Source: Candidatus Eiseniibacteriota bacterium
Lineage (GTDB): Bacteria; Eisenbacteria; RBG-16-71-46; DASYSL01
Direction of reading: 5' to 3'
Length of the DNA stretch: 64,000 bases
Assembly: GCA_050733935.1 (NCBI GenBank)
Contig: JBOHUC010000024.1
Coordinates: 8,750 to 72,749 of the forward strand
Shown here one piece after another: positions 2,635 through 63,083 of this stretch. The notes under the pieces were generated by a model, which was given only the letters and a program-made list of their open reading frames with translations, was not told the DNA's origin and did not search any database. How positions within the stretch are numbered: position 1 is the first letter of the stretch; each line of letters begins with the position of its first letter. Position numbers and translations under genes: made by a program.

Positions 2635-3696
2635 TCAGGAAGAGTAGATCGGGCGGTTCTCCGATGCTGGGACAGGCGCACGAACCACGAAGCTCCCGCT
2701 CGAGCGCGGCATCCACGGGGGCGGCTCGAGCACCTTTTGGAGCGGAGAGCGTGGAGACGTCCAGATCATGAAGGCCGATCCGCGATCCCGCCACTCGTTG
2801 CGCACCGCGCGCCACAGATGTCGCACGGCGTCCTCGTGGCCCGGGCGAAACCACACGCGGCTTGCCCCGATCTCGCGCATGAGTCCGTCTTTCGGAACGA
2901 TCCGAATCAGATGGTTGAGGAGCCACGGCACGACCGGCATGCGAACCATGCGGGTCGTCCGGATCCGCCCCCCCTCGATCACCGCGAGCCCCGCGACCAT
3001 CTCGCCCGCGTGCGTGACCGCCACCCGCAAATGCCGAAATTGAGACTCCAGCGGAGTCTCCTCGCACCACGCGCGGAGGCCTTCGGCCGTCTCGGGCGCA
3101 TAGAAATTGAATTCCGCATGGAACGTGTTGACGCCCTCGACGAAGGACGCGAGGCCTTCGCCATCGGACAGCTCGAGTGCACGCTCCTGATAGGCGCTCG
3201 AGCGGGGTGCGCGCGAAGCGGCAGGCATCGGAAAGACGGTCAGGCAATCGCGCAGCGTCTGCGTGCTCCAGCGGGCCGCGGTCTTCACTGAGCCCGTGTT
3301 GCCGCGCTGGATGCCGGCGTAGATCACTCCACCTTCTCCGACTCGCTCGTGCGCCCGCTCTACCCGTGCGTCGGCGATCTGCGCGGCAAGCCCGCGCCGC
3401 CGCATCACGGGGTGCACGACGAGGGAATTGAGGAAAGCGTAGGGACGCAGCTCTCCCTCATACTGGCAGCGACCAAAACGGATGAGCCCGGCTCCTGCGA
3501 GCCCTTCGAATCCATCCGACTCGGCGACCACGCCTTCGAAATCTCCGTGGAGCGCTCGCAGCGCGTCCCACGGCGGAATCTGAAAGCGCGAGGAGACCTG
3601 GAAGCGCCCGGCGTCCGCGCTCTGCGCAAGGAGTGTCGCGAACGCGGGGCCGTCCGCGGGAACGATCGGACGCAGGCGGAAACCGTAATCGGTCAT
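2635..3696 (-). CDS. GNAT family N-acetyltransferase, two-domain
   Basis: GNAT motif A (LVVHPVMRRRGLAAQI) lies in the N-terminal half. The internal ATG at 3696 (MTDYGF...) is preferred over the ORF start at 3714. Confidence 0.7.
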   Translation of the reverse strand: MTDYGFRLRPIVPADGPAFATLLAQSADAGRFQVSSRFQIPPWDALRALHGDFEGVVAESDGFEGLAGAGLIRFGRCQYEGELRPYAFLNSLVVHPVMRRRGLAAQIADARVERAHERVGEGGVIYAGIQRGNTGSVKTAARWSTQTLRDCLTVFPMPAASRAPRSSAYQERALELSDGEGLASFVEGVNTFHAEFNFYAPETAEGLRAWCEETPLESQFRHLRVAVTHAGEMVAGLAVIEGGRIRTTRMVRMPVVPWLLNHLIRIVPKDGLMREIGASRVWFRPGHEDAVRHLWRAVRNEWRDRGSAFMIWTSPRSPLQKVLEPPPWMPRSSGSFVVRAPVPASENRPIYSS

Positions 3697-3749
3697 ACGC
3701 CCCAAAACTAGCATGCAACCTTTCCCCGCTCCCGAACCACAGAGGGGAC

Positions 3750-4310
3750 ATGGAAGCCCACGCTCCCGAGCCCGCCGATCGTGAACTGGTGGAGCGGTTC
3801 CTAAGGACGCGATCGGACGCCGCCTTCCTCGCGCTCTACGACCGCCACACCGAGGCGCTTTACGCGTTTGCGGCGCGGCTCGTCGGGAGCGCGTCGGGCC
3901 ACGAGCCGGCCGAGCTCGTTCAGGAGGCCTGGCTTCGCGCGCTCACGGGGCTTTCCCAATTCCGGTGGGGATCGAGCCTCCGCACGTGGCTCTGCGGAAT
4001 CGTTCTCAATCGCTGGCGCGAAGTGCGCCAGCGGGAAGTCCGGGAGCGCCGATTCGAGATCGTGGAGGGCTCGCGTTCGCCGGAGGGGACGGCACTGCCG
4101 GCCGGCGACGCGGTCCTCCTCGAGCGGGCGCTGGCGACACTGCCGGAAGGATATCGAGAAGTGCTGCTGCTGCACGACGTCGAGGGTTACACGCATGAGG
4201 AGATCGCACGGCACTTCGGGATCGTCGAAGGCACATCGAAGAGTCAGCTCCACCGGGCGCGTCGCGCGCTTCGTGAAGCCCTGGGACTGACGGAGAAGGA
4301 GCGGGCATGA
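3750..4310 (+). CDS. ECF (sigma-70 family) RNA polymerase sigma factor
   Basis: Regions 2 and 4 are recognisable (LVERFLRTRSDAAFLALYDRH; ...LLLHDVEGYTHEEIA...GTSKSQLHRAR). The start is MEAHAP within the longer ORF 3633-4310. Confidence 0.85.
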   Translation: MEAHAPEPADRELVERFLRTRSDAAFLALYDRHTEALYAFAARLVGSASGHEPAELVQEAWLRALTGLSQFRWGSSLRTWLCGIVLNRWREVRQREVRERRFEIVEGSRSPEGTALPAGDAVLLERALATLPEGYREVLLLHDVEGYTHEEIARHFGIVEGTSKSQLHRARRALREALGLTEKERA

Positions 4311-4963
4311 GTGACGATCGCAAGCCGCACGAGGACGATCCGGGACGTCCGGCGCTCGAAGGTTGGGGCGCCGCGTGGCGGCCGCCGGCCTCGCTCCGCG
4401 AAGACACGTTGCGGGCTGCGCGGGCGCGCGGCCTCGTGGGGGGACGAAGGATGAATCGATGGAGCTTGTGGGTCGGCGCGGCGGCGGCAGCGGTTCTGCT
4501 GTTCGTCGCAGGATTCGGGCTCGGATCGCAGCGCGTACCCGGCGCGCCGGAGGAGACGAACGTGGCCAGCACGAAAGGATCGACCGCGGGAGAAGCGGCC
4601 GCACCGGACGCCCCGACGGGACCGCTCTTCGCGCTCTTCCTGTTCGAAGACAAGGGCTACCAGCAGCCCACGCCCGACGCGCTCGGCGCGCGCATCGGCG
4701 AATACTCGAGCTGGGCGCGCAGCATCGGGGAGTCGGGCCGCTACGTGACCGGGGAGAAGCTCGCGGACGACGGATCGTTCTGCCGTCTCGAGAAGGGAGC
4801 GCTCACCGCGTCGGGTCCCGTGCACGACTCGACTCGCGGGGTCCTCGCAGGCTACTTCATCATCGGAGCGGCGAGCCTCGAAGAGGCGCGCTCGATCGCT
4901 CGCAACTGCCCCCACCTCAAGTACGGCGGGAGTGTGGAGATCCGGCGGCTCGAAACGACCTGA
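4307..4963 (+). CDS. Putative anti-sigma factor with one TM helix and a C-terminal YciI-like domain
   Basis: ATGA overlap with the sigma factor stop. There is a TM segment (WSLWVGAAAAAVLLFVAGFGLG). The C-terminus (GVLAGYFIIGAASLEEARSIARNCPHLKYGGSVEIRRL) resembles the YciI/DGPF fold. Confidence 0.6.
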   Translation: MSDDRKPHEDDPGRPALEGWGAAWRPPASLREDTLRAARARGLVGGRRMNRWSLWVGAAAAAVLLFVAGFGLGSQRVPGAPEETNVASTKGSTAGEAAAPDAPTGPLFALFLFEDKGYQQPTPDALGARIGEYSSWARSIGESGRYVTGEKLADDGSFCRLEKGALTASGPVHDSTRGVLAGYFIIGAASLEEARSIARNCPHLKYGGSVEIRRLETT

Positions 4964-4987
4964 TCGAGCCCCGGCGGCTGCCTGGGC

Positions 4988-5659
4988 TCAGGCGCCGAGC
5001 ACGAAGTCGAACGTCGCGAGCTTGTGGGTCCGCCCGTCGGCCACGTTCATGAGGAGCTCGGGCTGGAAGATGCCGTCCCGCTGATTCCGGGGCTCGTTCG
5101 GGAAATAGAGCTGGGTCGTGAGGATCTTCCCCTTCGGCGCCTGGACGCGCACATGGAAGTGGCGCGTCCGTCCCGGATAGAGACCGGGGACGACCGTCTC
5201 GAGCCGGAACTTCCCGTCGGCGTCCGCGAACTGATGCCCGCGGCATCGGTAGCCCTCGTTGTCGTAGTCCCCGTCGCCGTCGGCGTGCCAGAAGTCGAGG
5301 AGTGCCCCCGCGACGGGCTTGCAGTTCTTCGAGAACACGCGTCCCGCGAGCACGATCGGCGTCCCCGGAACTCCCTTCTCGAGGAGCGACTTCTTGAGCG
5401 GGGAGTTCGGCGTGTAGAAGGGGCCCGCCGTTTCGGAGGGCGTGATGTCGTCGTCGTCCGCGCACGGCGGCGTTGCGGCGAGGACCGGCTCGTCGGCGCC
5501 CGCGGCGGACGCCGCGCGCTTCGTGGATTCGGCGGCCCACACGTCTGCGGCGCCCGCCGCGTGCGCGATCCAGGCGGCGACGGTCCATCCCGCGGGCAGG
5601 AGCAATGCAGACTTCAGGAATCGGCGGCGATCCAGCAACGGCTCGATGCGATCGGACAT
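4988..5659 (-). CDS. Intradiol ring-cleavage dioxygenase family protein with a Tat signal
   Basis: Twin-arginine signal (RRRFLKSALLLPAG). Dioxygenase C-terminal motifs are present (GRVFSKNCKPVAGALLDFWHADGDGDYD, PGRTRHFHVRV). The internal ATG at 5659 is preferred. Confidence 0.7.
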   Translation of the reverse strand: MSDRIEPLLDRRRFLKSALLLPAGWTVAAWIAHAAGAADVWAAESTKRAASAAGADEPVLAATPPCADDDDITPSETAGPFYTPNSPLKKSLLEKGVPGTPIVLAGRVFSKNCKPVAGALLDFWHADGDGDYDNEGYRCRGHQFADADGKFRLETVVPGLYPGRTRHFHVRVQAPKGKILTTQLYFPNEPRNQRDGIFQPELLMNVADGRTHKLATFDFVLGA

Positions 5660-5750
5660 GCGGCGCTCCCTCCGAGGCGGTGGATTCGACGGTAGGGAAC
5701 GCGCCGGGGCCTGTGCAAACCCAAAGCACGGCCGGTGTGCAATCTCTGCG

Positions 5751-8141
5751 TCAGGCCAGTCGGGCATCGCTCCCGGCGGCACGCCCGGTATCGATCCGCA
5801 CTTCCTTGAAGAGCGCATGATTCACGGCGCTGACCATGGGAGCTTCGAGAGGCCAGACAAGAGTGAGATTGGATCTGCGCGGGGCGTACGGCTCCCGATC
5901 CAGAACCGGATGCAGGTTCGGGTTCAGGCGCGCCGAGACCGGGGAGAGGTCCGCATTGACAGGCTGACGCAGGTACACGAGGGCCCGGTCCAGATCGCCG
6001 AGGCGGACACACGCCTCGGCGAGCAAGTAGCACGAGCCCGTGTTGAGACCCCGCGGGTCCTTCAGTTCCTCGACCAGCCTCCGAGCCTCGTCGTGACGAC
6101 CAGTACCCGCCGCGATGGCAGCACGGGACGCGTCCATCTCATGCCCATCCGCTCCATCCTTCAGAGCTTCCTCGAGCGTCTGCTCGGCGCGGGCATAGTC
6201 CCCTCGCAGGATGTGCGCCGCAATTCGAAGACCGTAGCTGCCGTTGATGTAAAACGTCGCATCCGTCATCTCTCGCAGGCGCCGGGCAGTGGCGATCGAC
6301 TCCTCGATCCTCTCCGTATCCAAAAGGAGAACCGAGAGCCAGGTTACCGCGAAGAGCTCCTGCGGATCGATTTCGAGCACACGGCGGATGAGACGTTCCG
6401 TTCCGGCCACGTCCGCGAGCGCATACTTGTTGACCGCCAGGTTCAACATGGCCGGCGTGAACCGTGGATTCACTTCGAGGGCACGCTCGAGCTCCATGCG
6501 TGACTCGGCAGCCTCACCGGATTGTCGCAATACGAGAGCGAGGGCCTTGTGGCCTTCCGCAAGACGCGGATCGATTGCAATGGCTCGCCGCGCCGCTTCG
6601 ATGCCTGACCGGCGGGCTTCAACCGGGTCGTCGGTCAACTGGAACTGAAGCATCTGTCCGTAGCAATCCGCGATCCCCGACCAGGCGAGTGCGTAGTTGG
6701 GATCGATCTCGGTGGCCTCGCGGAAGAACTCGAAGGCCTCGCGGATGCTCTTCTCCGAATACTGGCGATAGCGGTCCCGCCCTTTCAGGTAGAGATCGTA
6801 CGCGCGGACATCCTTTGGCCGCTCCTTGCCCAGGTTCTCGGATTCGCCGGGCCGCAGCGCGACGCGAAGCGCTTCGGCAATGGAGGACGCGATTTCTTCC
6901 TGAACCGCGAACACGTCCTCGAGAGTCCGGTCGTAGCGATCGGCCCAGAGATGGAATCCGTCTGCGGCATTGATGAGCTGTGCGGTGATCCGCACGCGAT
7001 CGCCGGCGCGCCGGACGCTGCCCTCGAGCACCGCCCGGACCCCGAGCTCAGTACCGACCTTCGCGATGTCGACGGCTTGCCCGCGATAGCGGGCAACGGC
7101 ATTCCGTGAGGCCACGCGCAGGCCCTTGATCTTCGAGAGATCGGTCAGAATGTCCTCGGTGATTCCCGAGCAGAAGTAATCGCTCTCCTTGTCGGCGGCC
7201 AGGTTCTCGAAATAGAGCACAGCGAGCGACGGAAGCTCCGCGGCTTTCGGGCCGATTCCGGACGCGGGTCCGCGTCCCGCCGAGGAGAGTTCGGCGGCGA
7301 TGGCCGAAAGCTCGCGGCGCAAATCGCCGATGTCGCGCGGCCGCTCCGTTGCATCCTTCGTGAGGCAACGTTCCATGAGCTCCCGAAGGCGGACCGGCAC
7401 GCCCGGCGGCAGCGCACTCCAGTCCGGCTCGCGCTCGAGGATTCCGGCAATCACGTCGGAGGAGGTTTCGCCGGCGAACGTCTGTTTGCCGCTCAGGCAT
7501 TCGAACAGCAGGCAGCCGAACGCCCACACGTCGGTGCGGCGATCCACGGGCTTCCCGCGCGCCTGCTCGGGGCTCATGTACGGTGCTGTGCCGAGAACGA
7601 CCCCGTGTTCGGTGATCGAGGGGGCCTGGGGCGTCACGGTGAGGTCGGAGGACGAGCCGGGCTCGGTTCCCTTCGCGAGCCCGAAGTCGAGCACCTTGAC
7701 GGCCCCGGACGGCGTGAGAATCACGTTCGCGGGCTTGAGGTCGCGATGGACGATCCCGCGTTCGTGCGCGGCATCGACGGCGGCCGCGATTTGACCGCCC
7801 AGGTCGAGCGTCTCGCGCACGCTGAGCGGGCCCCGGGCCAGGCGTGCGCTCAGCGTCTCGCCGTCGACGAACTCGAGAACGATGTACGGCGTGCCGTCGA
7901 CGTCCTCGAGCCCGTGGATCATGGCGATGTTCGGATGATTGAGCGCGGCCACGAGTTTCGCTTCGCGCTCGAATCGCGCGCGGCGCTCGGGGTCGCTCGT
8001 GAAGGCCTTCGGCAGGGACTTGATCGCGACCGTCCGCTCGAGGCGCGTGTCGCGCGCGCGGTAGACCTCGCCCATCCCACCTGCGCCAAGGGGCGCAAGG
8101 ATCTCGTACTGACCGAGGCGTGTGCCGGTCATCAGGGACAT
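5751..8141 (-). CDS. Serine/threonine protein kinase with a C-terminal TPR repeat region
   Basis: The N-terminal kinase domain shows GAGGMGEVY, AIK, HRDLKPANVIL, DFGLAK and SPEQ. It is followed by a central sensor-like module and C-terminal TPR repeats. Confidence 0.85.
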   Translation of the reverse strand: MSLMTGTRLGQYEILAPLGAGGMGEVYRARDTRLERTVAIKSLPKAFTSDPERRARFEREAKLVAALNHPNIAMIHGLEDVDGTPYIVLEFVDGETLSARLARGPLSVRETLDLGGQIAAAVDAAHERGIVHRDLKPANVILTPSGAVKVLDFGLAKGTEPGSSSDLTVTPQAPSITEHGVVLGTAPYMSPEQARGKPVDRRTDVWAFGCLLFECLSGKQTFAGETSSDVIAGILEREPDWSALPPGVPVRLRELMERCLTKDATERPRDIGDLRRELSAIAAELSSAGRGPASGIGPKAAELPSLAVLYFENLAADKESDYFCSGITEDILTDLSKIKGLRVASRNAVARYRGQAVDIAKVGTELGVRAVLEGSVRRAGDRVRITAQLINAADGFHLWADRYDRTLEDVFAVQEEIASSIAEALRVALRPGESENLGKERPKDVRAYDLYLKGRDRYRQYSEKSIREAFEFFREATEIDPNYALAWSGIADCYGQMLQFQLTDDPVEARRSGIEAARRAIAIDPRLAEGHKALALVLRQSGEAAESRMELERALEVNPRFTPAMLNLAVNKYALADVAGTERLIRRVLEIDPQELFAVTWLSVLLLDTERIEESIATARRLREMTDATFYINGSYGLRIAAHILRGDYARAEQTLEEALKDGADGHEMDASRAAIAAGTGRHDEARRLVEELKDPRGLNTGSCYLLAEACVRLGDLDRALVYLRQPVNADLSPVSARLNPNLHPVLDREPYAPRRSNLTLVWPLEAPMVSAVNHALFKEVRIDTGRAAGSDARLA

Positions 8142-30016: not shown

Positions 30017-30141
30017 ACTCGCCCGGGTAACTTGCCCCGGGGCAACGTTGACATAACGAACGATGAACTCGCTCTGGAGCGAATTCATCAACGGTGTTGA
30101 TCGCCGCCAGGAGCCCGTGAACTTGCCCCGGCGTGTTGAGG
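30017..30141. repeat. Two copies of the palindromic repeat AACTTGCCCCGGGGCAAGTT in a convergent intergenic region
   Basis: GTAACTTGCCCCGGGGCAACGTTGAC and GTGAACTTGCCCCGGCGTGTTGAG. The same palindrome occurs three times at 53505-53625. Confidence 0.6.
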
Positions 30142-50779: not shown

Positions 50780-51649
50780 ATGGACCTGTCCCTGATCCTC
50801 GTCTACTACAAGGCCCGTGAACACCTGAGGGCCTGCCTGCCCTCCCTGCCCGCGGCGTGCGCGGGACTCTCGTACGAGGTGATCGTGGTCGACAACGCCT
50901 CGGCGGACGGTGTGGCGGCCGAAATGAGACGGGAATTCCCTCACGTCCGCTGGATCGAGAATTCCGAAAACGTGGGGTTCGCTCGCGGCGTGAACCGCGG
51001 GCTCGCAGTCGCGGGCGGCCGCGCCATCGCGCTCCTCAATCCGGACACGATCGTGGAGCCCGGAGCCTTCTCCACGCTCGTGCGTCATCTCGACCAGCAC
51101 CCGGCGACGGGCGCCGTCGGGCCCAAGATCCTCGACCCGGATGGCTCGATTCAGCTCTCCTGCCGGCGGTTTCCCACGCACTGGACGGGACTCTTCAACC
51201 GCTACTCGCTCCTCACCCGGCTCTTTCCGAACAACCCGTGGAGCCGCGCCTATCTCATGCTCGATTTCGATCACGCCTCGACACGGGCTGTCGACTGGAT
51301 CTCGGGCGCGTGCCTCGTGACCCGGCGCGACGTGGTCGAACGCGTCGGACCGATGGACGAGGCGTTCTTCCTCTTCAACGAGGACGTGGACTGGTGCCGC
51401 CGCATGCACGATGCGGGCTACGACGTCGTCTATCTTCCGGAAGCGCGCTGCATGCACGCGATCGGCGCGTCGAAGGGCGCGATTCCGCTGTGGCTCATCT
51501 GGCGGCGACACCAGGGCATGCGCCACTATTTCCGTAAGCACCACAAGGGACCGTGGCCGGTCATGCTGCTCACGGATCTCGGGATCCTCCTTCGCTGCGC
51601 CGCCCAGGTCGCGCTCAATCCCCTGCGCGCGCTCGGAGGTCCCGCTTGA
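50780..51649 (+). CDS. Glycosyltransferase family 2
   Basis: VDNASADG (DxD) and a GT-A fold N-terminal region. The ATG at 50780 is preferred over the TTG at 50765. Confidence 0.8.
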   Translation: MDLSLILVYYKAREHLRACLPSLPAACAGLSYEVIVVDNASADGVAAEMRREFPHVRWIENSENVGFARGVNRGLAVAGGRAIALLNPDTIVEPGAFSTLVRHLDQHPATGAVGPKILDPDGSIQLSCRRFPTHWTGLFNRYSLLTRLFPNNPWSRAYLMLDFDHASTRAVDWISGACLVTRRDVVERVGPMDEAFFLFNEDVDWCRRMHDAGYDVVYLPEARCMHAIGASKGAIPLWLIWRRHQGMRHYFRKHHKGPWPVMLLTDLGILLRCAAQVALNPLRALGGPA

Positions 51650-52701
51650 CGCCGGGCTGGCTCGGCGTGCTCGCCCTCACCGCCGCTGCGTTCGTGGTCG
51701 CGATTGCGTTCACGCCGGCCGTCATGCGGGCGGCGCAGCGTTTCGGCTTCGTCGATCATCCGGGCGAACGCAAGGTCCATCGCGAGCCGATGCCTACCGG
51801 CGGCGGTTTCGCAGTCGCGGGCGCGTTCTTTGCCGTCCTGTGGATCTCGACGTTGTTCCCGGGAGCCCCGCCGATGCGCGCGGTCATCGGGCTCACGGTC
51901 GTCGGCGTCCTCGCTCTCCTCCTCGGATATTTCGACGACCGCTTCCGGCTTCCGGCGTGGTTCAAGCTCATCGTCCAGGCGGGCTGCGGAGTCTTGCTGC
52001 ACCAGTTCGGCTTTGGCGTCGACAAGCTCTCGAACCCGTTCGCGGGCGATCGAGCGGCGATCGAGCTCCAGGGCCTCGGAATCCTGGTCGACGTCATCTG
52101 GGTGCTCGCGATCACGAACGCGATCAATCTGATCGACGGTCTCGACGGCCTGGCCACGGGCGTGGTCGCGATCGCGACGGGGGCGCTGGTCGCGGTCGCG
52201 ACCATCCATCAAGACGCCTCGGTGATCTGGGTGGGAGCGATCCTGGTCGGTGCGTGCCTCGGGTTCCTGCGCTACAACTTCCCGCCCGCGCGCATGTTCC
52301 TCGGCGACACGGGGAGCCAGTTCCTCGGCATGATGATGGCGGCGCTCGCGCTGCTCGAGAACAACAAGGGCACGGCCGCGATCACGCTCCTCCTTCCGAT
52401 CGTCGCGATGGGCCTGCCGCTCCTCGATTCAGGGCTCGCGTTCGTCCGGCGGCTCGGTCGGGGCGGCCGGATCTTCCGCGCCGACCAGGAGCACCTGCAC
52501 CACAGGCTCCTCCACCTCGGGCTCACGCAGCGCCAGGTCGTCACGCTCATGTACTACGCGTGCGCGTACCTCGGGATCACGGCCTACATGCTGTCGTTCC
52601 TGCCGCGGCGGGCGGTGCTGCTCGTCCTCGTCCTCCTCACCATGGGCCTCGTGCTCGCGCTCGAGACGCTCGAGTTCATCGATCGCCGATCCCGTCGCTA
52701 G
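51646..52701 (+). CDS. Glycosyltransferase family 4, undecaprenyl-phosphate sugar-phosphate transferase (WecA/MraY-like)
   Basis: VDHPGERKVH, NAINLIDGLDGLA and FLGDTGSQFLG motifs. The TTG start overlaps the GT2 stop (TTGA). Confidence 0.75.
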   Translation: MTPGWLGVLALTAAAFVVAIAFTPAVMRAAQRFGFVDHPGERKVHREPMPTGGGFAVAGAFFAVLWISTLFPGAPPMRAVIGLTVVGVLALLLGYFDDRFRLPAWFKLIVQAGCGVLLHQFGFGVDKLSNPFAGDRAAIELQGLGILVDVIWVLAITNAINLIDGLDGLATGVVAIATGALVAVATIHQDASVIWVGAILVGACLGFLRYNFPPARMFLGDTGSQFLGMMMAALALLENNKGTAAITLLLPIVAMGLPLLDSGLAFVRRLGRGGRIFRADQEHLHHRLLHLGLTQRQVVTLMYYACAYLGITAYMLSFLPRRAVLLVLVLLTMGLVLALETLEFIDRRSRR

Positions 52702-52715
52702 CTTTTGCTTTTGCG

Positions 52716-52755
52716 CGGTCGCGCGGAGCGTTCTTCGGTCGCGCGGGGCGTCTTT
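52716..52755. repeat. Two 20-bp tandem direct repeats (CGGTCGCGCGGRGCGTYTTT) plus a degenerate third
   Basis: Seen directly in a locally lower-GC intergenic stretch, 52702-53040. Confidence 0.5.
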
Positions 52756-53040
52756 GGTCGGGGCCCGGTGCGCGATCGCGCCGAACTTTTTTGGCGCGCT
52801 ATGAGAGATTTTTCTTGACGCTCTTTCAGCGTCGGAGCGGTTGTCGCTCCCGGGTCTCTCAAAGGACACGCGCGAGCGTGCTCAGGATCGCTCGACTCGC
52901 GAGATCCGGCGGAGGTCCGGCGCAGCGCTCATGAGGCTCTGAACGACGCTCGTTGCGCGGCTGTCCGGGCGTGTCCGCCGCTCGTGATAGAAATGAATCG
53001 AGTCCCCGCTCGAAGGTGCGCCCCCGGTGGAGTCGTTGCC

Positions 53041-54198
53041 ATGCGTGCCTACGCCCTGACTCACCTCAGCGATGAAGTCCTGCTTCGCAATCTGAACGAG
53101 CTCGTTGCGCGGGACCGCCTGACGACGACGGAGCTCCTCGCCTGCCTGGCCGAGGTCGATGCCCGCAGGCTCTACGTCCCCGCGGGCTACACGTCGATGC
53201 ACGCCTTTTGCGTCGACGGCCTTCACCTGTCCGATGACGCAGCCTTCAAGCGGATCCAGGCCGCGCGGGCGGCGCGGCAGTTTCCGGCCCTCTTCGGAGC
53301 GCTGGCCGAGGGGCGGCTTCACCTCACGGCCGTGCGCCTCCTCGCGCCCCATCTCACCGAGGAGAACGCGGACGAGCTGATTCGGGCCGCGTCGCACCGG
53401 CGTAAGGGCGAGATCGAAGAGTTCCTCGCCCGGCGTTTCCCCCTGCCCGAGGGGCAGTCGATGGTCCAGACGCTCCGCGCGCTTCCCTCGGTTCGGGCGT
53501 TACCGAAGGTGGAACTTGCCCCGGGGCAAGTTGCCGCTGCGGTGCGAGGTCTCCTGGGCGAGGTTGCCCCGGGGCAAGTTGAGTCTCGTGAGCCGCAGCC
53601 GGCCGGTGAACTTGCCCCGGGGCAAGTTGGAACGGCGGTCGGAGGGCCTGCCTCCGCCCCGACGACGGCTCCGGCGCGCTACCTGCTTCGGCTCGCCATT
53701 GGAAAGACCACCCACGACCGGCTGCGGTACGCGCAGGAGTTGCTCAGCCATTCGGTGCCCTCGGGGGACATCGAGGCCGTTCTGGATCGCGCGCTCGAGG
53801 CCCTCATTCGTCAGCTCGAGTCCCGAAAGTTCGCGGCCACGAAGGAGGTGAAGCCAAAGCGTCGTGCGAACACGAAGCCCACGACGTCGGACAAGAGCCT
53901 GGGGGCGGTACCCATGCGGCGGGAGTCGGCTCGTGACCGGTACGTCCCGGCACGCGTCAAGCGTGGGGTCTGGAAGCGCGATCAGGGTCGGTGCACGTTC
54001 GTGGGTGAGAGCGGACATCGCTGTGAGGCGCGAAGCTTCCTCGAATTCGATCACATTGAGCCGCTGGCCCGAGGCGGAAGCGCGACCCGGGAGGGAACGC
54101 GACTCCGATGCCGGGCTCACAATCAGTTTGAAGCCGAGCGAGTGTTCGGCACCGGGTTCATGGCCCACAAACGAGAGCAGGCTCGAGCGGGCACCTAG
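53041..54198 (+). CDS. HNH endonuclease with an N-terminal DUF222-like domain (REP13E12-type)
   Basis: C-terminal HNH motif (...WKRDQGRCTFVGESGHRCEARSFLEFDHIEPLARGGSATREGTRLRCRAHNQ). The N-terminus is DUF222-like. Three in-frame palindrome copies encode ELAPGQV repeats. Confidence 0.75.
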   Translation: MRAYALTHLSDEVLLRNLNELVARDRLTTTELLACLAEVDARRLYVPAGYTSMHAFCVDGLHLSDDAAFKRIQAARAARQFPALFGALAEGRLHLTAVRLLAPHLTEENADELIRAASHRRKGEIEEFLARRFPLPEGQSMVQTLRALPSVRALPKVELAPGQVAAAVRGLLGEVAPGQVESREPQPAGELAPGQVGTAVGGPASAPTTAPARYLLRLAIGKTTHDRLRYAQELLSHSVPSGDIEAVLDRALEALIRQLESRKFAATKEVKPKRRANTKPTTSDKSLGAVPMRRESARDRYVPARVKRGVWKRDQGRCTFVGESGHRCEARSFLEFDHIEPLARGGSATREGTRLRCRAHNQFEAERVFGTGFMAHKREQARAGT

Positions 54199-54259
54199 CA
54201 CGACGAGTACGACGAGGCGTGCCCGCACACCGGAGCGCGCGGAGCTTCCTCTGCTGCGG

Positions 54260-55090
54260 CTAGCGGAAGCGGCCCGGCCCCCCGCCTTGCGCGAACAGCG
54301 GCAGCTGCACCGAGGATCCCGTGTTCCACGCGGGGCACATCGGCTGGAATTCGCACCAGTTGCAGAGCGGAGTGATCCGCGGCGGAAAATCGTCCGCCTG
54401 GGCCGCGCGCTGGATGCGCGCGATGAGCCCGAGCACGTTGAGTTTCAACTCGCGCAACTGGTCCGGTGTGCGGATCGAGAAGAGCATCCGGTCGTGGGCC
54501 AGGTAGTGCCACACGAGCTTGATCGAGTGCACATCGGGCAGCTGGAGCGTGACGCCCAACTGATAGAGCGCGAGCTGGCGATCGCGGTCGATCTCGTTCT
54601 GCGACGGCAGGCGGCGCGAGGTCTTGTAGTCGTGGATCTCGTAGTTCCCGCCGCCCAGATCCACGAGCCGGTCCACATAGCCGGTCAGGTGGACGTCGTT
54701 CTCCGGATCGAGCGGATAGGTGACGAGCATTTCCGCGCCCAGCGTGCGGCCGCGGTTGAACGGGTCGTGGCGCCGATAGTAGAGCTCGAGGCACCGCTCG
54801 GCGATGCGGCGATAGCCCGCGACCGTCTCTCCCGCCCGCACGACGTGGACGGCGCCGGACCACTCCCGTCCCCAGGCCTCCCGAAAGTGATCGAGGATTT
54901 CGGCCTGCGTGGGCTTGTAGCCCATCTCGATCGACTGATAGAGGAATTCGAGCGTCTCGTGGACGCGCTTCCCGAGGAACGACTCGATGCTCTCCCGTGG
55001 CGGGACTTCGACCTGATCCACGTACCGGAGACGGTATTGGAGCGGGCAGTTCTCGTAGGCATTGAGTCGGGAGTTCGAAAACGTCGCCAT
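54260..55090 (-). CDS. PD-(D/E)XK nuclease family protein (Cas4/RecB-like with a Cys cluster)
   Basis: N-terminal Cys (YENCPLQY), the D...E-x-K motif (VDRLVDL ... YEIHDYKTS), the QxxxY motif (QLALYQL), and a C-terminal CNWCEFQPMC. Confidence 0.7.
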   Translation of the reverse strand: MATFSNSRLNAYENCPLQYRLRYVDQVEVPPRESIESFLGKRVHETLEFLYQSIEMGYKPTQAEILDHFREAWGREWSGAVHVVRAGETVAGYRRIAERCLELYYRRHDPFNRGRTLGAEMLVTYPLDPENDVHLTGYVDRLVDLGGGNYEIHDYKTSRRLPSQNEIDRDRQLALYQLGVTLQLPDVHSIKLVWHYLAHDRMLFSIRTPDQLRELKLNVLGLIARIQRAAQADDFPPRITPLCNWCEFQPMCPAWNTGSSVQLPLFAQGGGPGRFR

Positions 55091-58938: not shown

Positions 58939-58966
58939 AGATTATCCGCAACAATTGTTGTGTCAA
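58939..58966 (-). promoter_or_regulatory. Sigma-70-like promoter (TTGACA-16/17 nt-TAATCT) with the 12-bp palindrome CAACAATTGTTG in the spacer
   Basis: The minus strand reads cTTGACAcaacaattgttgcggaTAATCT upstream of the OMP gene. Confidence 0.5.
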
Positions 58967-61863
58967 GAGCTTTGCGTGGCGACCCCCGGAGCTAAGTCGA
59001 GCACCCGCACCGCCTCTTCGAACCAACCGGGGGCCCCGGAGCGCAGGTTCTCGACCAGCGCGCGGTGGCAGGTGAGCACCAGAACCTGGTGCCCGGAGCG
59101 AGTCACCTCACCCAGGGCCTTCAGGAAATGGGCCGCCCGTTCGTCGTCGCTCGTGGCGAATGGATCGTCGAACAAGAGCGGCAGTCGTTCACGCCCGCGC
59201 GCGAGGTACTCGCAGATCGCAAGCCGAAGCGCGAGCTCGACCTGGTCCCGCGCGCCGGCCGAAAGTGCCGCGTCGAGTCGGGAACCGGAAAGCCGCTCGC
59301 CTCCCATCGAAAGGGAAACCTCGAGCTGATCCGAAATGCGGAAGCCTTGATGCGGAAGGCCGAAGCGCACGAGGAACGACTCCGCACGACCCGCGAGATG
59401 CTCCGACCAGCGCGCGTTCGTCTCGCGCGCGACGGTCTGGAACCGCTCGCGCGCCAGCTCGACGGCGTCCTTGAACTGGCGCGCGCGGACGAGCGCCGCC
59501 GAGAGTCGCGTCCGATCCGCGAGGAACCGCGCGAGCCGCTCCGCCGAGTCGCGATCCCGGCCGCCCACGCGCGCGTGAAGATCGATCTGCTCGCTACGCA
59601 CGACCGAGAGCTCGCGCTCGATCGACGCCGCGTCCCGGTCGCCTTCCGCGGGCACGGGCGCGGGCGCGGCTGCGCTCGAAGCGGACGCCGGATCCTCCGC
59701 TGCAGCGAGCTCCGCGCGCAGGCGCTCGAGCTCGGCCGTCTGCGCGCGCTGCGCCCCCTCCGAGAGCAGGCGCTCCTCGGCCCGCGGAATGAGCTCGCGT
59801 TCGAGCGTCTCGAGACGTGCATGCTCGCGGGCACGACGCTCGACGGCCTCGATGACTTCGGCCTCGTTCACTTCTGCGGACGCAAGCCCCAGGCGCTTTG
59901 CGATCGCGACGAGGTCGGCGCGCGCGTCGTCACGCCGCAGCCCGGCCACGCGCTCCTGATCGACGAGACGGGCCTCGACGGCTTCGAGCGACTTCGCGCG
60001 CGCCCGCGCATCGAGCACGGTGCCGATTCCGAGGCGAAGCTTCGCCAGCGCCTCGTGCGCGGGGATGCTCTCGGGAAGACCCGCGCGCCGGGCCAGCCGG
60101 ACGACGTGCTCGAGCGCTTCGGCCCGGCCCGAGCGCGCGCGCGTCGCATCCTCCTCGAGCCATCCGGCGCGCTGGTTCTCCGAGCTCACGCGCAGGAATT
60201 CGCCGTGCTCGCGCAGGAGCGCGGTCACGTCCGGAAATCCGAGGCGTCCCGAAAGGCCGGCCAGGAGATCCTCGCGCGCCTTCCGGCGATGCTGGAGCTC
60301 CCCGAGTCGCCGCTGCGCGTCGAGCACCTGCTTGAGCGCTTCGTTGCGCGCGTTGTTCCGGTGTACCGCGCTCCGGAACAGGAACACAGTGCCGAGGGAA
60401 AGCCCGAGAAGCGTCCCGCCGAGGCCGACGAAGCTCTGGATCACCTGCCCGTGAAGCGCAAACCAGACAGCCGCCGCGCAAGCGACGAGCCCGACCCCGA
60501 TGAACGTGATTCCCCAGCCCCTCTGGCGCCCGCGCTGGCGCGCGATCGCCTCGATCTGCCCCTGGCCCCCCGTGATCGCACGCTGCGCGTTCTCGGTCTC
60601 GACGACGATCGCCTGCGTCTGCGCCGGGTACTGCGTGAGGAGTGTCCGATCCTCGCCGGAGAGACCGCCGAAGCGCCCGGCCCGCTCCGCGAGATACGCG
60701 AGCGACAGGCCGCGCGCCACGAGCTCGCTCTCGAGCGCTCCGAGCTTGTCCGCCGATTCCCGCTCCTGACGGGTGACGCGCTCGAGGTCCTTCTCGAGCA
60801 TGTGGAGCTCTTCGATGTGGCCGGGCGCGGCCCACTCGAACGCGCCGTGCTTCGCCAGCAGAGTCTCGAGTTCGAGCCGGGGAGCAGCGAGATCGCGCTC
60901 GCGCTCCTTCGCAATCTGCTCGAGGGTCGAGAGCGCGGATTCATTCTCCGCTTTCGCGCGTGCAAGGCGGCTCGCCGCGTCCGCCGGGAAATCCCGCGAA
61001 CCCTCGAGACCCTTCACTTCCGTGCGATGGGATTCGAGCTCGCGCCGTTCCGCCGCATCGCGCTCGAGCACGGCCGCGAGATCGCCTATGCGCCGCCGCG
61101 TCTCCTCGCGCCGCACGCGGGTGAGCGCGGCCGTGAGGCGCGCCTCCCTGAGCCCGAGCTCGGTGAGACGCTCGAGCGCGTCCGCGAGCTCGCGCCGCTC
61201 GTTCTCCGCCGAAGCGAGATCCACCTTGTTGGTGGCGAGCGCAATCTCGAGCTTCTTGATCTCGTTCGTGACCAGGCCCGACTGCTGCATTCCGCGATAG
61301 GAACGGAGCGCGTTGTCGAGCACGCCGAACGCAGCCACGGCGGATGCGTCCCCGGTCACGCTCGAGGCCATGCTCTCGAGCATCGCGGTCAGGGAGCCGT
61401 CGGGCCTCACGTCCGCGCCGCCGAGCCGGCCGGGACCGGGCTGCATCCAGAGTGCGGTGCGCGCGAACTGGTCGATGTTCATCCCGAGCAGCTCTTCACC
61501 CAGCTTGTACTCGCCCGAGCCGTGACGGAACGAGTCCGTGACGTCACGACCGTCCTCGTGCACGTTGAGGCGGCCGTTTCCGAAGTGGCGGCTCACGATG
61601 TAGCGCCGGCCCTCGATCTCGAACTCGAGCTCGAGCGCGTACGTCCTCCCGCTCCACGGCCGGTGCTGATCGAGCGGTGTCTCGCGTTCCCGATACGCAC
61701 GGCGGTCGCTGTCGAGTCCGTAGAGGGCGGCCACGATCGCGGCCGCGAGCGTGGTCTTCCCGCGCTCGTTTCCGCCCACGATGAGATGGATGCGCTCGGG
61801 CTCGAACGTCCACGTCCCGGTCAGCGCGCCGAATCCCTCGATCTGAAGACGACGCAGGTTCAC
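58963..61863 (-). CDS. SbcC/Rad50-like AAA ATPase with a long coiled coil and an internal two-TM hairpin (YhaN-like)
   Basis: N-terminal Walker A (IVGGNERGKTT), a C-terminal signature/Walker B/D-loop region (...LPLLFDDPFATSDD...), and mid-protein TM helices (WGITFIGVGLVACAAAVWFAL, FVGLGGTLLGLSLGTVFLF). The GTG start overlaps the sbcD-like stop (GTGA). Confidence 0.8.
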   Translation of the reverse strand: MNLRRLQIEGFGALTGTWTFEPERIHLIVGGNERGKTTLAAAIVAALYGLDSDRRAYRERETPLDQHRPWSGRTYALELEFEIEGRRYIVSRHFGNGRLNVHEDGRDVTDSFRHGSGEYKLGEELLGMNIDQFARTALWMQPGPGRLGGADVRPDGSLTAMLESMASSVTGDASAVAAFGVLDNALRSYRGMQQSGLVTNEIKKLEIALATNKVDLASAENERRELADALERLTELGLREARLTAALTRVRREETRRRIGDLAAVLERDAAERRELESHRTEVKGLEGSRDFPADAASRLARAKAENESALSTLEQIAKERERDLAAPRLELETLLAKHGAFEWAAPGHIEELHMLEKDLERVTRQERESADKLGALESELVARGLSLAYLAERAGRFGGLSGEDRTLLTQYPAQTQAIVVETENAQRAITGGQGQIEAIARQRGRQRGWGITFIGVGLVACAAAVWFALHGQVIQSFVGLGGTLLGLSLGTVFLFRSAVHRNNARNEALKQVLDAQRRLGELQHRRKAREDLLAGLSGRLGFPDVTALLREHGEFLRVSSENQRAGWLEEDATRARSGRAEALEHVVRLARRAGLPESIPAHEALAKLRLGIGTVLDARARAKSLEAVEARLVDQERVAGLRRDDARADLVAIAKRLGLASAEVNEAEVIEAVERRAREHARLETLERELIPRAEERLLSEGAQRAQTAELERLRAELAAAEDPASASSAAAPAPVPAEGDRDAASIERELSVVRSEQIDLHARVGGRDRDSAERLARFLADRTRLSAALVRARQFKDAVELARERFQTVARETNARWSEHLAGRAESFLVRFGLPHQGFRISDQLEVSLSMGGERLSGSRLDAALSAGARDQVELALRLAICEYLARGRERLPLLFDDPFATSDDERAAHFLKALGEVTRSGHQVLVLTCHRALVENLRSGAPGWFEEAVRVLDLAPGVATQSS

Positions 61864-63083
61864 CGCGCGGCCTCTCCGATGTGCTCGTAGCGCGGCGCGA
61901 CGTCCCCGAGCCGAAGCGCATCGAGTCCGTAGTAGAGCGCCGCCTCGAGCAAGCGCCGACGCTCGGGATCGTTCTCCCGATCCATGTCCTCGAGCAACGA
62001 GCGCGCGAACCGCTCCTCGGTCGTGCGCGGCTCCGTGCGCCGGTAGACGTCGAGGTCGTAGTCGGGACGAAGCGCCGACGCATTGATCTCGAGGTGGAAG
62101 CAGCGGTTCGCGAACGCGTCCGCGCCCGGGAGGAGCTCCACGCCGGGCCGAACACGGCCCGTGAGCGTGACGAGCGCGATGTCGTCGGGATTGACGAATG
62201 CGAGATCGAGCTCCTCGGCGATCCGCTGGGTGAGCGCCTCCGGCGAGCCGACGGACTGGAGGCGCACTTCGATCCGGTGCAGGCGGCGCCGGTCGAGCTC
62301 GAGGACGTCCACATCCACGCGCCGGTGATGTCCATTGTGATCGACGGTGACGATCTGAACGTAGCGGCGATCCGTCTCGTCGACGCAGAGCGCGAGCGGC
62401 GAGCCGGAATAGCTTCCGCGAACGACTCCTTCCTCGTCCGTGATGCGGGCCGGGCGGTGGTAGTGACCGAGTGCGGCGTAATCGGCGCCCCACGCGATCA
62501 GCTCGTCGTCGGAGAACGGTGCCGTGAGCTTCTTCCCGAGCGGGAAGAACCCGTCGCGCGAGCCATGGAGCAGGAGCACGTGGAGCTTTCCGGGCGCGAG
62601 CGACGGCCGGTCGAGCGCGAGCACGCGCTCGCTCGAATCCACGTTCTCGTGCACGCATCGCCCCCACACGAAGACGTCGTCGCGGCCCGGGAGCGGCACG
62701 CCCGTGATCTGCGGCAGATCGAAGATGTGGACGTGCGCAGGCCAGGTCGCCTGACCCGCGGCTTCGAGCTTGCGGTTGTCGTAATAGAACGTGGCCCGGG
62801 AGAAGCAGTCGTGGTTGCCCGGAGCGATGAAGATGGGCGGGCATCCCGGTTGCGAGACGCACTCGATCGCGCGCGCCACGGTTTCACGATCCACGATCTC
62901 GCCGTCGAACAGGTCCCCGGGAATGAGGATTGCGTCGAGCTTGCGCTCGATGGCGACCTGCACGGCGCGGGCGAACAGCTCGCGCTGATCCTGGCGCCGC
63001 TTCTCCGCGACGGGGGCGGGGAGCCACGTGAACGGGCGCCCCAGATGGAGATCGGAGAGCTGGAGGAACGTGAAGGAAGGCAT
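61860..63083 (-). CDS. SbcD/Mre11-like metallophosphoesterase (YhaO-like)
   Basis: Calcineurin-like motifs (LQLSDLHLG, IPGDLFD, GNHD, LLHG, GHYH). The internal ATG at 63083 is preferred. Confidence 0.8.
   Translation of the reverse strand: MPSFTFLQLSDLHLGRPFTWLPAPVAEKRRQDQRELFARAVQVAIERKLDAILIPGDLFDGEIVDRETVARAIECVSQPGCPPIFIAPGNHDCFSRATFYYDNRKLEAAGQATWPAHVHIFDLPQITGVPLPGRDDVFVWGRCVHENVDSSERVLALDRPSLAPGKLHVLLLHGSRDGFFPLGKKLTAPFSDDELIAWGADYAALGHYHRPARITDEEGVVRGSYSGSPLALCVDETDRRYVQIVTVDHNGHHRRVDVDVLELDRRRLHRIEVRLQSVGSPEALTQRIAEELDLAFVNPDDIALVTLTGRVRPGVELLPGADAFANRCFHLEINASALRPDYDLDVYRRTEPRTTEERFARSLLEDMDRENDPERRRLLEAALYYGLDALRLGDVAPRYEHIGEAAR

Follow-up and report, generated by a model that had tools for sequence, protein, structure and literature searches.

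A 64,000-nucleotide (nt) stretch of a Candidatus Eiseniibacteriota metagenome-assembled genome (MAG), which we call the window and whose positions serve as coordinates throughout (L and P numbers denote compared loci and proteins), contains a one-gene cassette composed of a terminator-like hairpin, a promoter-like leader and a gene encoding an HNH endonuclease of 385 amino acids (53041-54198, + strand). The cassette sits between the 3' ends of two convergent genes, one for a family-4 glycosyltransferase (GT4; 51553-52701, + strand) and the other for a PD-(D/E)XK nuclease. Within the open reading frame (ORF) of the HNH gene lie three DNA palindromes, which are absent from the preliminary description of this DNA. 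Across the gene family, compensatory changes on both arms keep such palindromes complementary, at the price of rare codons and coupled amino-acid swaps. We read the whole as a selfish homing-type HNH cassette with cis-acting DNA hairpins or cruciforms in its linker-coding DNA. Our judgement on this overall account is evenly balanced, the structural facts being far surer than the function.

In the window, palindromes 1 (53513-53532) and 3 (53609-53628) have the same sequence, AACTTGCCCCGGGGCAAGTT, the first of them encoding ELAPGQV. Palindrome 2 (TTGCCCCGGGGCAA; 53564-53577) is perfect over 14 bp, its outer arm having degenerated. They follow one another at intervals of 48 nt (16 codons), and the peptide is ELAPGQV or EVAPGQV in every case. 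The string CCCCGGGG occurs four times in the 64 kb, always within this type of palindrome. When folded as single-stranded DNA, the linker region (53500-53645) reaches -48.5 kcal/mol, with a z-score of -6.95. The palindromes are written in codons that are rare in the neighbouring genes, namely CTT (9% of Leu), CAA (8% of Gln) and GTT (6% of Val), and the probability of the codon string in AACTTGCCCCGGGGCAAGTT, given the peptide ELAPGQV, is 5e-6.

The palindromes are a property of the whole family. More than 3,400 proteins match the HNH protein at E <= 1e-3, typically with 55-60% identity over the full length, and species-representative genomes hold at least 574 loci, nearly all of them titled Eisenbacteria. 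We kept 80 of these loci, several genomes supplying three each, and analyzed 84 HNH ORFs for palindromes. In total, 160 palindromes were found in 80 of the 84 ORFs, with one to six per gene, a length of 14-42 bp, a single common codon frame and a position that is mostly 400-700 nt into the ORF. In L053, the palindrome is perfect over 42 nt. The sequence variants, such as AACATGCCCCGGGGCATGTT, AACATGCGCCGGCGCATGTT, AACTCGCCCCGGGGCGAGTT, AACTGGCCCCGGGGCCAGTT, AACTGGCGGCGCCGCCAGTT and ACTCGTCCCGGGACGAGT, all retain the symmetry, and covariation extends over about 20 variants.

As for the kind of constraint, the pairs at positions 2-9 from the palindrome center are Watson-Crick in 93-99% of the 160 sites. 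Positions 3, 6 and 7 swap among C:G, G:C, T:A and A:T with complementarity kept, and position 2, which is 99% complementary, includes a switch from C:G to G:C. At five of the ten arm positions, about 88% of the sites agree in their base pair. Constraint is weakest at the center, where 74% of pairs are Watson-Crick and CCGG is replaced by CCAG or CTGG in 38 of 160 sites, as would be expected of a relaxed loop or of deamination of 5-methylcytosine at CpG. Since selecting sites for symmetry would be circular, we also chose them by the fixed anchors AC.....C..G.....GT only. In 53% of the unique sites so chosen, all five unconstrained inner pairs are complementary, versus 3% in an arm-swapped null (maximum 11.7% in 1000 permutations), while the same anchor pattern in flanking DNA gives 27-37% complementarity per pair. 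A pair-counting covariation score reaches 0.392 versus 0.130 +/- 0.011 for shuffles, none of 500 attaining it, and falls to 0.05-0.12 when the partners are slid. Cells with changes on both sides number 153 versus 48.

The encoded peptide follows the DNA. The residue pairs seen (L..Q, H..H, L..R, L..P and P..Q) are those that complementarity permits, and the third base of the Ala codon sets the residue two codons further on, GCC/GGG giving APG, GCG/GCG giving APA and GCT/GAG giving APE. This is a clear example of a synonymous codon position dictating an amino acid two codons off, which bears on how repeats in disordered linkers should be read.

The palindromes are also nearly exclusive to this gene family. 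In a census of signature sites, 116 fall within HNH ORFs and five beyond the ORF calls in 355 kb of flanking DNA. Four of these five lie in interrupted HNH pseudogenes, which leaves one truly extragenic site, versus about 0.2 expected from shuffles. We considered genome-wide dispersal in the manner of REP sequences and rejected it on this ratio of 116 intragenic sites to one extragenic site; no HUH transposase is involved. A scan of metagenomes for TTGCCCCGGGGCAA returned mostly chance matches in unrelated GC contexts, with three of 80 in HNH genes and two in extragenic clusters (L156 and L165).

The window itself contains a degenerate extragenic cluster (AACTTGCCCCGGGGCAAcGTT, GAACTCGCTCTGGAGCGAATTC and GAACTTGCCCCGGcgtGTTG; 30028-30140) between two convergent genes, with no HNH coding sequence around it. 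Its second variant, GAACTCGCTCTGGAGCGAATTC, equals linker palindromes of the HNH genes in L030, L056 and L082. Similar clusters are found in L003 (about 16429), L156 (about 2009-2080) and L165 (about 2026-2150). The cluster in the window could be what remains of a cassette since lost, or an array of hairpins in its own right. Two other placements touch on the relation between palindrome and peptide. In L026, a palindrome identical to the gene's own linker copy lies 5 nt past the stop codon (3937-3958), and in L059 two palindromes (1873-1894 and 1939-1954) lie in a 3' extension in a different reading frame. These placements indicate that the palindrome is independent of the encoded peptide.

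Where several palindromes occur in one gene, the arrays grow by tandem duplication of units made of a palindrome and its spacer; in L063, the spacers are directly repeated with 70-93% identity. The idea that the arrays are nested giant palindromes was discarded, the spacers being direct and not inverted repeats (mean identity 0.56 versus 0.50).

The cassette as a unit is defined by loci that lack it. In L088 and L089, the GT4 and PD-(D/E)XK genes meet directly tail to tail, with an overlap of 24-41 nt, and these contigs carry no HNH gene, be it at this junction or anywhere else. Aligned to these empty sites, the extra DNA of the window spans about 52695-54320. Because the two flanking genes abut or overlap without an HNH gene in relatives, it is the HNH gene with its leader (about 52.7-54.3 kb) that was inserted, which bears out the presence/absence polymorphism that the preliminary description expected from a comparison of orthologous loci. 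DNA homology with the paralogue in L003 runs from about 52800 to the HNH stop codon (~54200), which delimits a unit of ~1.4 kb consisting of leader and ORF.

The left junction, which separates the GT4 stop codon from the conserved part of the cassette, contains 2.3 copies of a 20-bp tandem repeat of CGGTCGCGCGGAGCGTTCTT (52716-52760). The direct repeats of the preliminary description are thus present, though small (Tandem Repeats Finder score 69, 88% matches). Their motif has no further occurrence in the window and lies upstream of the part conserved with paralogues. One of the repeat units, CGCGCGGAGCGTTCTTC, at 52720, recurs at 54236, and these are its sole two occurrences on the + strand of the window. 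The left copy reads CGCGCGGAGC[G]TTC[T/C]TC (52720-52737, + strand) and the right copy CGCGCGGAGCTTCCTC (54236-54252, + strand), the latter located 38 nt past the HNH stop codon. CGCGCGGAGCGTTCTTC may represent a junction duplication. Across the family, flanking repeats barely exceed chance (8.13 versus 7.70 +/- 0.18), the only clear case being L041, whose cassette is flanked by an exact 19-nt repeat.

The HNH assignment rests on the translation, homologues, PHROG and Pfam scans and an AlphaFold2 model with a mean predicted local distance difference test (pLDDT) score of 78. In this model, a helical N-domain (residues 1-135, pLDDT about 97) is followed by a disordered linker (141-204, pLDDT < 50), a helical hairpin (222-265), a second disordered linker rich in Lys and Arg (269-298) and the HNH domain (300-385), in which pLDDT is mostly > 90 with a dip to about 75 near residue 345. 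The C-terminal motif CTF...C...DH...C..HN is invariant in 118 homologues, as are D337, H338, H360, N361, C318, C328 and C357. PHROG HNH families match the protein at 6e-7. The Pfam HNH model scores 13.7 bits, against a cut-off of 21.4; among 17 relatives, it matches 15 (best 1.3e-4), and HNH_5 matches 12. The best Foldseek matches of the model in the PDB are McrA and the Gme HNH nicking enzyme. By sequence and model, the protein is thus predicted to carry a C-terminal His-Me (HNH) nuclease domain with a beta-beta-alpha fold and with its catalytic and zinc ligands kept.

The gene had been described as a DUF222-HNH endonuclease. The HNH half of that name stands, with an intact ORF and an invariant motif, while the DUF222 half finds no backing in Pfam. 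Pfam DUF222 (PF02720) gives no match to the window protein at E <= 10 and none to 17 family members at E <= 1, the precomputed Pfam entries for the 120 best homologues read "-" or HNH only, and plasmid records queried by tblastn with the N-domain likewise yield no DUF222 link. About 40% of the HNH homologues (e.g., P0003, P0011 and P0101) extend past the HNH domain in a C-terminal tail. This tail weakly matches the C-terminal domain III of RuvA (RuvA_C) in seven of 17 homologues (best E = 0.0017), one of which NCBI so names. The window protein does not have it.

Upstream of the gene, the 339 nt between the GT4 stop codon and the HNH ATG (52702-53040) are non-coding. This leader had been called visibly AT-richer than its flanks, an impression that measurement does not sustain. 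Its GC content is 65.2%, versus a window mean of 67.7% with a standard deviation of 3.1%, which places it in the 17th percentile of windows of the same size, and the HNH ORF (67.9%) is indistinguishable from the window (67.8%). A consensus scan identified a terminator-like GC hairpin with a T-run (52766-52793, + strand), and the T-run and the bases after it are common to the window and the paralogue L005. Directly 3' of this hairpin is box A (GAGATTTTTCTTGACG; 52805-52820, + strand), with a family consensus GATTTCnCTTGAC[AG] that contains the -35-like TTGAC[AG]. Its TTGAC is invariant in 38 aligned leaders (set A6) and nearly so in the broader set A5. Box B (TGATAGAAAT; 52985-52994, + strand) has the consensus CGTGnTAnnAA, resembles an extended -10 element (TGnTAnnA) and is kept in family alignments; a simple sigma-70 scan called no full promoter at it.

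Between the two boxes lies a non-coding module of fixed length (52821-52984, + strand). The two boxes occur in most copies of the cassette. In the 38 loci, box A and box B are 168-171 nt apart (169-171 nt in all but one, which has 168), while box B lies at a variable 43-98 nt ahead of the ATG. The interval contains conserved blocks, but its sequence is otherwise strongly diverged. A structured RNA was rejected, since there is no Rfam match at E <= 1 and RNAalifold pairs no bases in the 38 leaders; folding energies are unremarkable on the two strands (z = -0.15 and -0.42). So was a small-protein gene, no frame being open in more than 21 of the 38 copies. The flanks of box A and box B show no closing stem (4.92 versus 4.83 for the null). 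The fixed spacing of ~170 nt is therefore accounted for by neither an RNA structure nor an ORF nor a closing stem. From its sequence, we regard the leader as the cassette's predicted promoter and insulator region.

As for the history of the family, one assembly (GCA_975254425.1), taken as the MAG of the window, holds at least three copies, the other two being P0002 (78% identity) and P0023 (55%). Each is on a separate contig and in an unrelated housekeeping context. Only four of the 84 ORFs are interrupted, the remainder being intact. Relative to the paralogue in L003, the ratio of nonsynonymous to synonymous divergence (dN/dS) is 0.06 in the N-domain, 0.055 in the middle helices that form the helical hairpin and 0.14 in the HNH domain, with dS of 0.7 in the N-domain and the HNH domain and 1.56 in the hairpin. 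Synonymous divergence of at least 0.7 combined with low dN/dS shows that the copies are old and under purifying selection. We also considered whether the linker is a breakpoint between N- and C-terminal modules, which was rejected: identities of the two parts are moderately correlated (r = 0.56), and there is no sharp change of identity between the window and L003 copies, an apparent difference of 93% versus 72% being due to the neutral K/R linker. An origin in plasmids or phages was likewise dismissed. Neither collection holds relatives of the family, plasmids giving short HNH-domain matches only, and an N-domain tblastn search against plasmids found nothing.

In one sub-lineage (L017, L052, L055 at 3625-6084, L062 and L072), which lacks box A, the HNH gene occupies a conserved position before a gene for an MrfA-type helicase with DEAD, Helicase_C, WHD_HRQ1 and MrfA Zn-binding domains. 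The HNH stop codon overlaps the helicase ATG (ATGA), an arrangement that predicts translational coupling. A linker palindrome is present in four of the five copies (L052, L055, L062 and L072) and none was found in L017. Two further loci stand out by the coverage given in their contig names. L039 (JBGQIE010000293.1, 2251 bp) has 812x versus about 9-10x for sibling contigs of the same MAG, and L071 has 115x versus 17-31x for its siblings, which suggests that these cassettes are collapsed high-copy repeats. The possibility that such short contigs are circular or plasmid-like was rejected, as they have no terminal overlaps.

How might such a cassette work? By analogy with known systems, it would be a free-standing homing-type nuclease gene that spreads and persists through recombination provoked by its nuclease at empty sites. 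The linker palindromes would be cis-acting DNA structures, the target either of the element's own protein or of the host recombination machinery. In the former case, the protein might bind or nick DNA in a structure- and sequence-specific manner, like junction-cleaving His-Me enzymes. The palindromes lie directly downstream of the part that encodes the N-domain, so that the nascent protein could engage them in cis, co-translationally. Autoregulation, initiation of gene conversion and copy maintenance are candidate outcomes. A cis-acting role is plausible because the palindromes are exclusive to the family and combine conserved bases with free stem sequence, in the style of REP and IS200/IS605 elements, and because the His-Me superfamily, of which the nuclease is a member, also has enzymes that cleave junctions, such as T4 endonuclease VII. 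The RuvA_C-like tails and the MrfA-coupled sub-lineage make a link with junctions or helicases plausible. More speculatively, the cassettes might be a hitherto unrecognized kind of selfish element, in which a His-Me nuclease reads in-frame intragenic hairpins or cruciforms as structures, possibly together with RuvB/MrfA-type motors, an HNH counterpart of REP/RAYT and IS200/IS605. We rate this wider proposal as rather unlikely.

Several points weigh against the homing-cassette account. The target of the nuclease, its cleavage and its mobility are predictions. Neither terminal inverted repeats nor consistent target-site duplications were found across the family. The copies are old, many of them at orthologous positions in different MAGs, so recent movement is not evident. 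The cis-acting sites of mobile elements are normally terminal, while here they lie mid-element. A copy that cleaved itself would be the recipient and not the donor in gene conversion, with no obvious gain. The N-domain has no significant match to a DNA-binding fold, a Foldseek search of the PDB returning HNH matches and a weak one to Spo0J (E = 8). Lastly, the missing tolerance of G:U pairs, discussed below, is suggestive and not decisive against an RNA role.

Such an RNA role is the alternative that survives best, and we still consider it unlikely. The palindromes would then act as mRNA hairpins that throttle translation of a toxic HNH domain, serve as RNase III sites or stabilize the 3' end. 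They are on the transcribed strand within the ORF, just ahead of the nuclease half, the palindrome behind the stop codon of L026 is where an mRNA 3' stabilizer would be placed, and the weakly constrained central pair is loop-like. An RNA stem should nevertheless tolerate G:U, and over positions 3-9 mismatches of the G:T type are no commoner than A:C (18 versus 18). In the unbiased set, G:T makes up about 21% of non-complementary cells, versus 17% expected. This lack of preference argues against a purely RNA stem and for a DNA hairpin or cruciform, or for a constraint on both strands. Moreover, a 2-nt loop would leave position 2 unpaired, yet this position is 99% complementary even through its C:G to G:C switch, and palindromes also persist in other frames and in degenerate clusters outside genes.

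The palindromes could instead be functionless quasi-palindromes in a permissive linker, their arms equalized by template switching and their arrays made by tandem duplication. Template switching is documented to create and homogenize inverted repeats, including in coding DNA (PMC8794818, PMC8604942). The directly repeated spacers of arrays such as that of L063 speak for tandem duplication, a linker with pLDDT < 50 would tolerate any peptide, and the absence of G:T tolerance suits a copying mechanism. We judge this explanation quite unlikely. Although synonymous sites are saturated (dS 0.7-1.6) and the surroundings rich in indels, 80 of 84 genes have palindromes, and those of the window and L003 are identical though their spacers have diverged and dS is at least 0.7. 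Such identity across paralogues, together with the arm positions that hold the same pair in about 88% of sites, argues against a neutral feature kept by template switching alone. A mutational process should also have seeded other disordered linkers, and deletion should have removed palindromes, whereas these are confined to one gene family.

A third alternative, which appears very unlikely, is that the palindromes are duplex operators at which a dimeric DNA-binding protein (the element's own N-domain or a host regulator) represses or nucleates, as with parS, which in B. subtilis lies within spo0J. The perfect dyad with its conserved outer AAC/GTT and GC core would suit such a site, the extragenic copies in the MAG of the window precede TTGACATAA, which is promoter-like, and the weak Foldseek match of the N-domain is to a Spo0J-parS complex. 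A protein that reads bases would fix them, yet positions 3, 6 and 7 are free, and still complementary, even within one gene. The coexistence of different variants in single genes (L025, L029, L075 and L085) shows that it is arm pairing that is kept and not base recognition by a dimer. Besides, extragenic copies are very rare, and matches to the 14-mer in metagenomes are mostly due to chance.

The preliminary description had joined the HNH gene and its Cas4-like PD-(D/E)XK neighbor into a small mobile or defence-related islet, which is extremely improbable: the two nuclease genes are indeed adjacent and convergent, and PADLOC Cas4 models match the neighbor at 3e-10 (with partial coverage and below threshold), but the neighbor keeps its synteny in relatives without an HNH gene, other HNH copies have no such neighbor, composition does not deviate, and there is neither a PADLOC match for the HNH protein (0 families of PADLOC-DB) nor a CRISPR/cas context. 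The three other HNH copies checked, P0002 and P0023 in the MAG of the window and P0073 in another MAG, all lack a PD-(D/E)XK neighbor, which makes the pairing of the two nucleases coincidental. With the empty sites, this is why we rejected the term nuclease islet. What remains of it is the HNH gene as an insertion with presence/absence polymorphism; its neighbor is a core gene without defence context.

The neighbor, which is outside the inserted cassette, was otherwise correctly described as an Fe-S PD-(D/E)XK nuclease convergent to the HNH gene (276 amino acids; 54260-55090, - strand). It matches PDDEXK_1 (PF12705) over residues 3-253 with 116 bits (E = 2.7e-33, cut-off 22). Its D...DxK and QxxxY motifs are present, and its four Cys residues fit the spacing C-Xn-C-X2-C-X5-C. 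Across 36 homologues, C15, C243, C246, C252, E151, D154-Y-K156 and Q172...Y176 do not vary, and D140 is shared by at least 90% of the sequences. The protein thus has the full-length PDDEXK_1 domain, DxK, QxxxY and four-Cys cluster of stand-alone Cas4-like/RecB-family (COG2887) Fe-S nucleases. It differs from Cas4 proper in scoring 34.4 bits with TIGR00372, under the equivalog cut-off of 65, in its lack of CRISPR/cas context and in being a syntenic core gene. Other PADLOC matches reflect nuclease-domain similarity to DruK and Aga only, without partner genes, so that the check with defence tools that had been proposed lends the islet nothing.

Homologues of this nuclease grade from 80% down to 45% identity, in Eisenbacteria and beyond, and are mostly annotated as RecB-family exonucleases, a graded series that fits vertical inheritance. 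We examined the synteny of the gene in L088-L091. In L088 (80% identical) and L089 (71%), the order Eis-like GNAT, lipoprotein, PD-(D/E)XK, GT4, GT2 is that of the window, and in L090 (57%) the Eis-like and lipoprotein genes still adjoin the PD-(D/E)XK gene. The nuclease is therefore a conserved, vertically inherited core gene, unrelated to the HNH cassette. This corrects a tempting misannotation: the Cas4-like nuclease is no part of an island, and the conservation with Eis-like, lipoprotein and GT4 genes is what the preliminary description itself had named as evidence to the contrary. Its account of the flanks is correct, with GT4 upstream and a lipoprotein-like ORF followed by an Eis-like GNAT acetyltransferase downstream, and so is its statement that the Cas4-like gene stands without cas context. 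There is no CRISPR array in the window (no tandem array scores >= 90) and no cas1/cas2 or CRISPR beside the gene, whose neighbors are GT4, lipoprotein, Eis-like GNAT, DinB-like and SbcCD-like genes.

Multi-copy HNH genes with a helical N-terminal domain and free-standing selfish nuclease genes are known, while in-frame palindromes that covary and a leader of fixed length seem not to have been described before; a full-text literature search found nothing on these HNH genes or their palindromes. To our knowledge, genes of the former kind, such as the mycobacterial REP13E12/DUF222 genes, still lack a mechanism 25 years after they became known. REP13E12/DUF222-HNH of Mycobacterium is described as a mobile-like, multi-copy chromosomal repeat of ~1.4 kb whose function is unknown (Gordon et al. 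1999, cited in PMC10589994). The cassette resembles it, as far as that description goes, in unit size, chromosomal multiplicity and the combination of a helical N-terminal region with a C-terminal HNH domain. It differs in that the window protein and 16 relatives are unmatched by Pfam DUF222, and in its host, Eisenbacteria and not Actinomycetota. The free-standing HNH homing genes of T4-like phages (mobA-E), which practice intronless homing, also have conserved genes on either side, and they spread through the recombinational repair that they provoke (PMC2790892, PMC2988022). They share with the cassette a single nuclease gene with its own promoter (here promoter-like), presence/absence polymorphism and several diverged copies per genome. 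The HNH cassette, known from sequence alone, is instead bacterial and chromosomal, without relatives in phage or plasmid collections, and only it has a conserved leader of fixed length and intragenic palindromes.

Parallels to the palindromes exist as well. In REP/RAYT systems, the ends of IS200/IS605 elements and integron attC sites, short DNA hairpins keep their pairing and a few bases, while their stems vary, and each is tied to one protein family. The palindromes of the HNH family likewise are short hairpins conserved in pairing and genetically linked to one protein family. They lie in frame within its own ORF, however, and not at element ends or dispersed between genes, and they are linked to an HNH nuclease where those systems have an HUH/Y1 protein or a tyrosine recombinase. 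Rickettsia palindromic elements (RPEs), of 100-150 bp, are found in frame in many unrelated ORFs. They too are palindromic DNA translated as part of a protein at permissive positions, whereas those of the HNH family measure 14-42 bp and keep to one position in one gene family.

This sister-like family provides a testable clue for helical-domain HNH genes in general: conserved intragenic DNA palindromes with clean covariation. If the protein acts on them, this would explain the persistence and spread of such genes, would add an HNH-based member to the mobile elements that recognize hairpins and would make available a set of structure-specific nucleases naturally paired with their hairpins.

About 4 kb from the cassette, the window contains a pair of genes encoding SbcD-like (Metallophos) and SbcC-like (AAA_23) proteins (~58963-63083, - strand; L001 2008-6128). 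Since SbcCD of other bacteria processes DNA hairpins, the host is probably equipped to act on such palindromes. The pair is also kept in the synteny of relatives.

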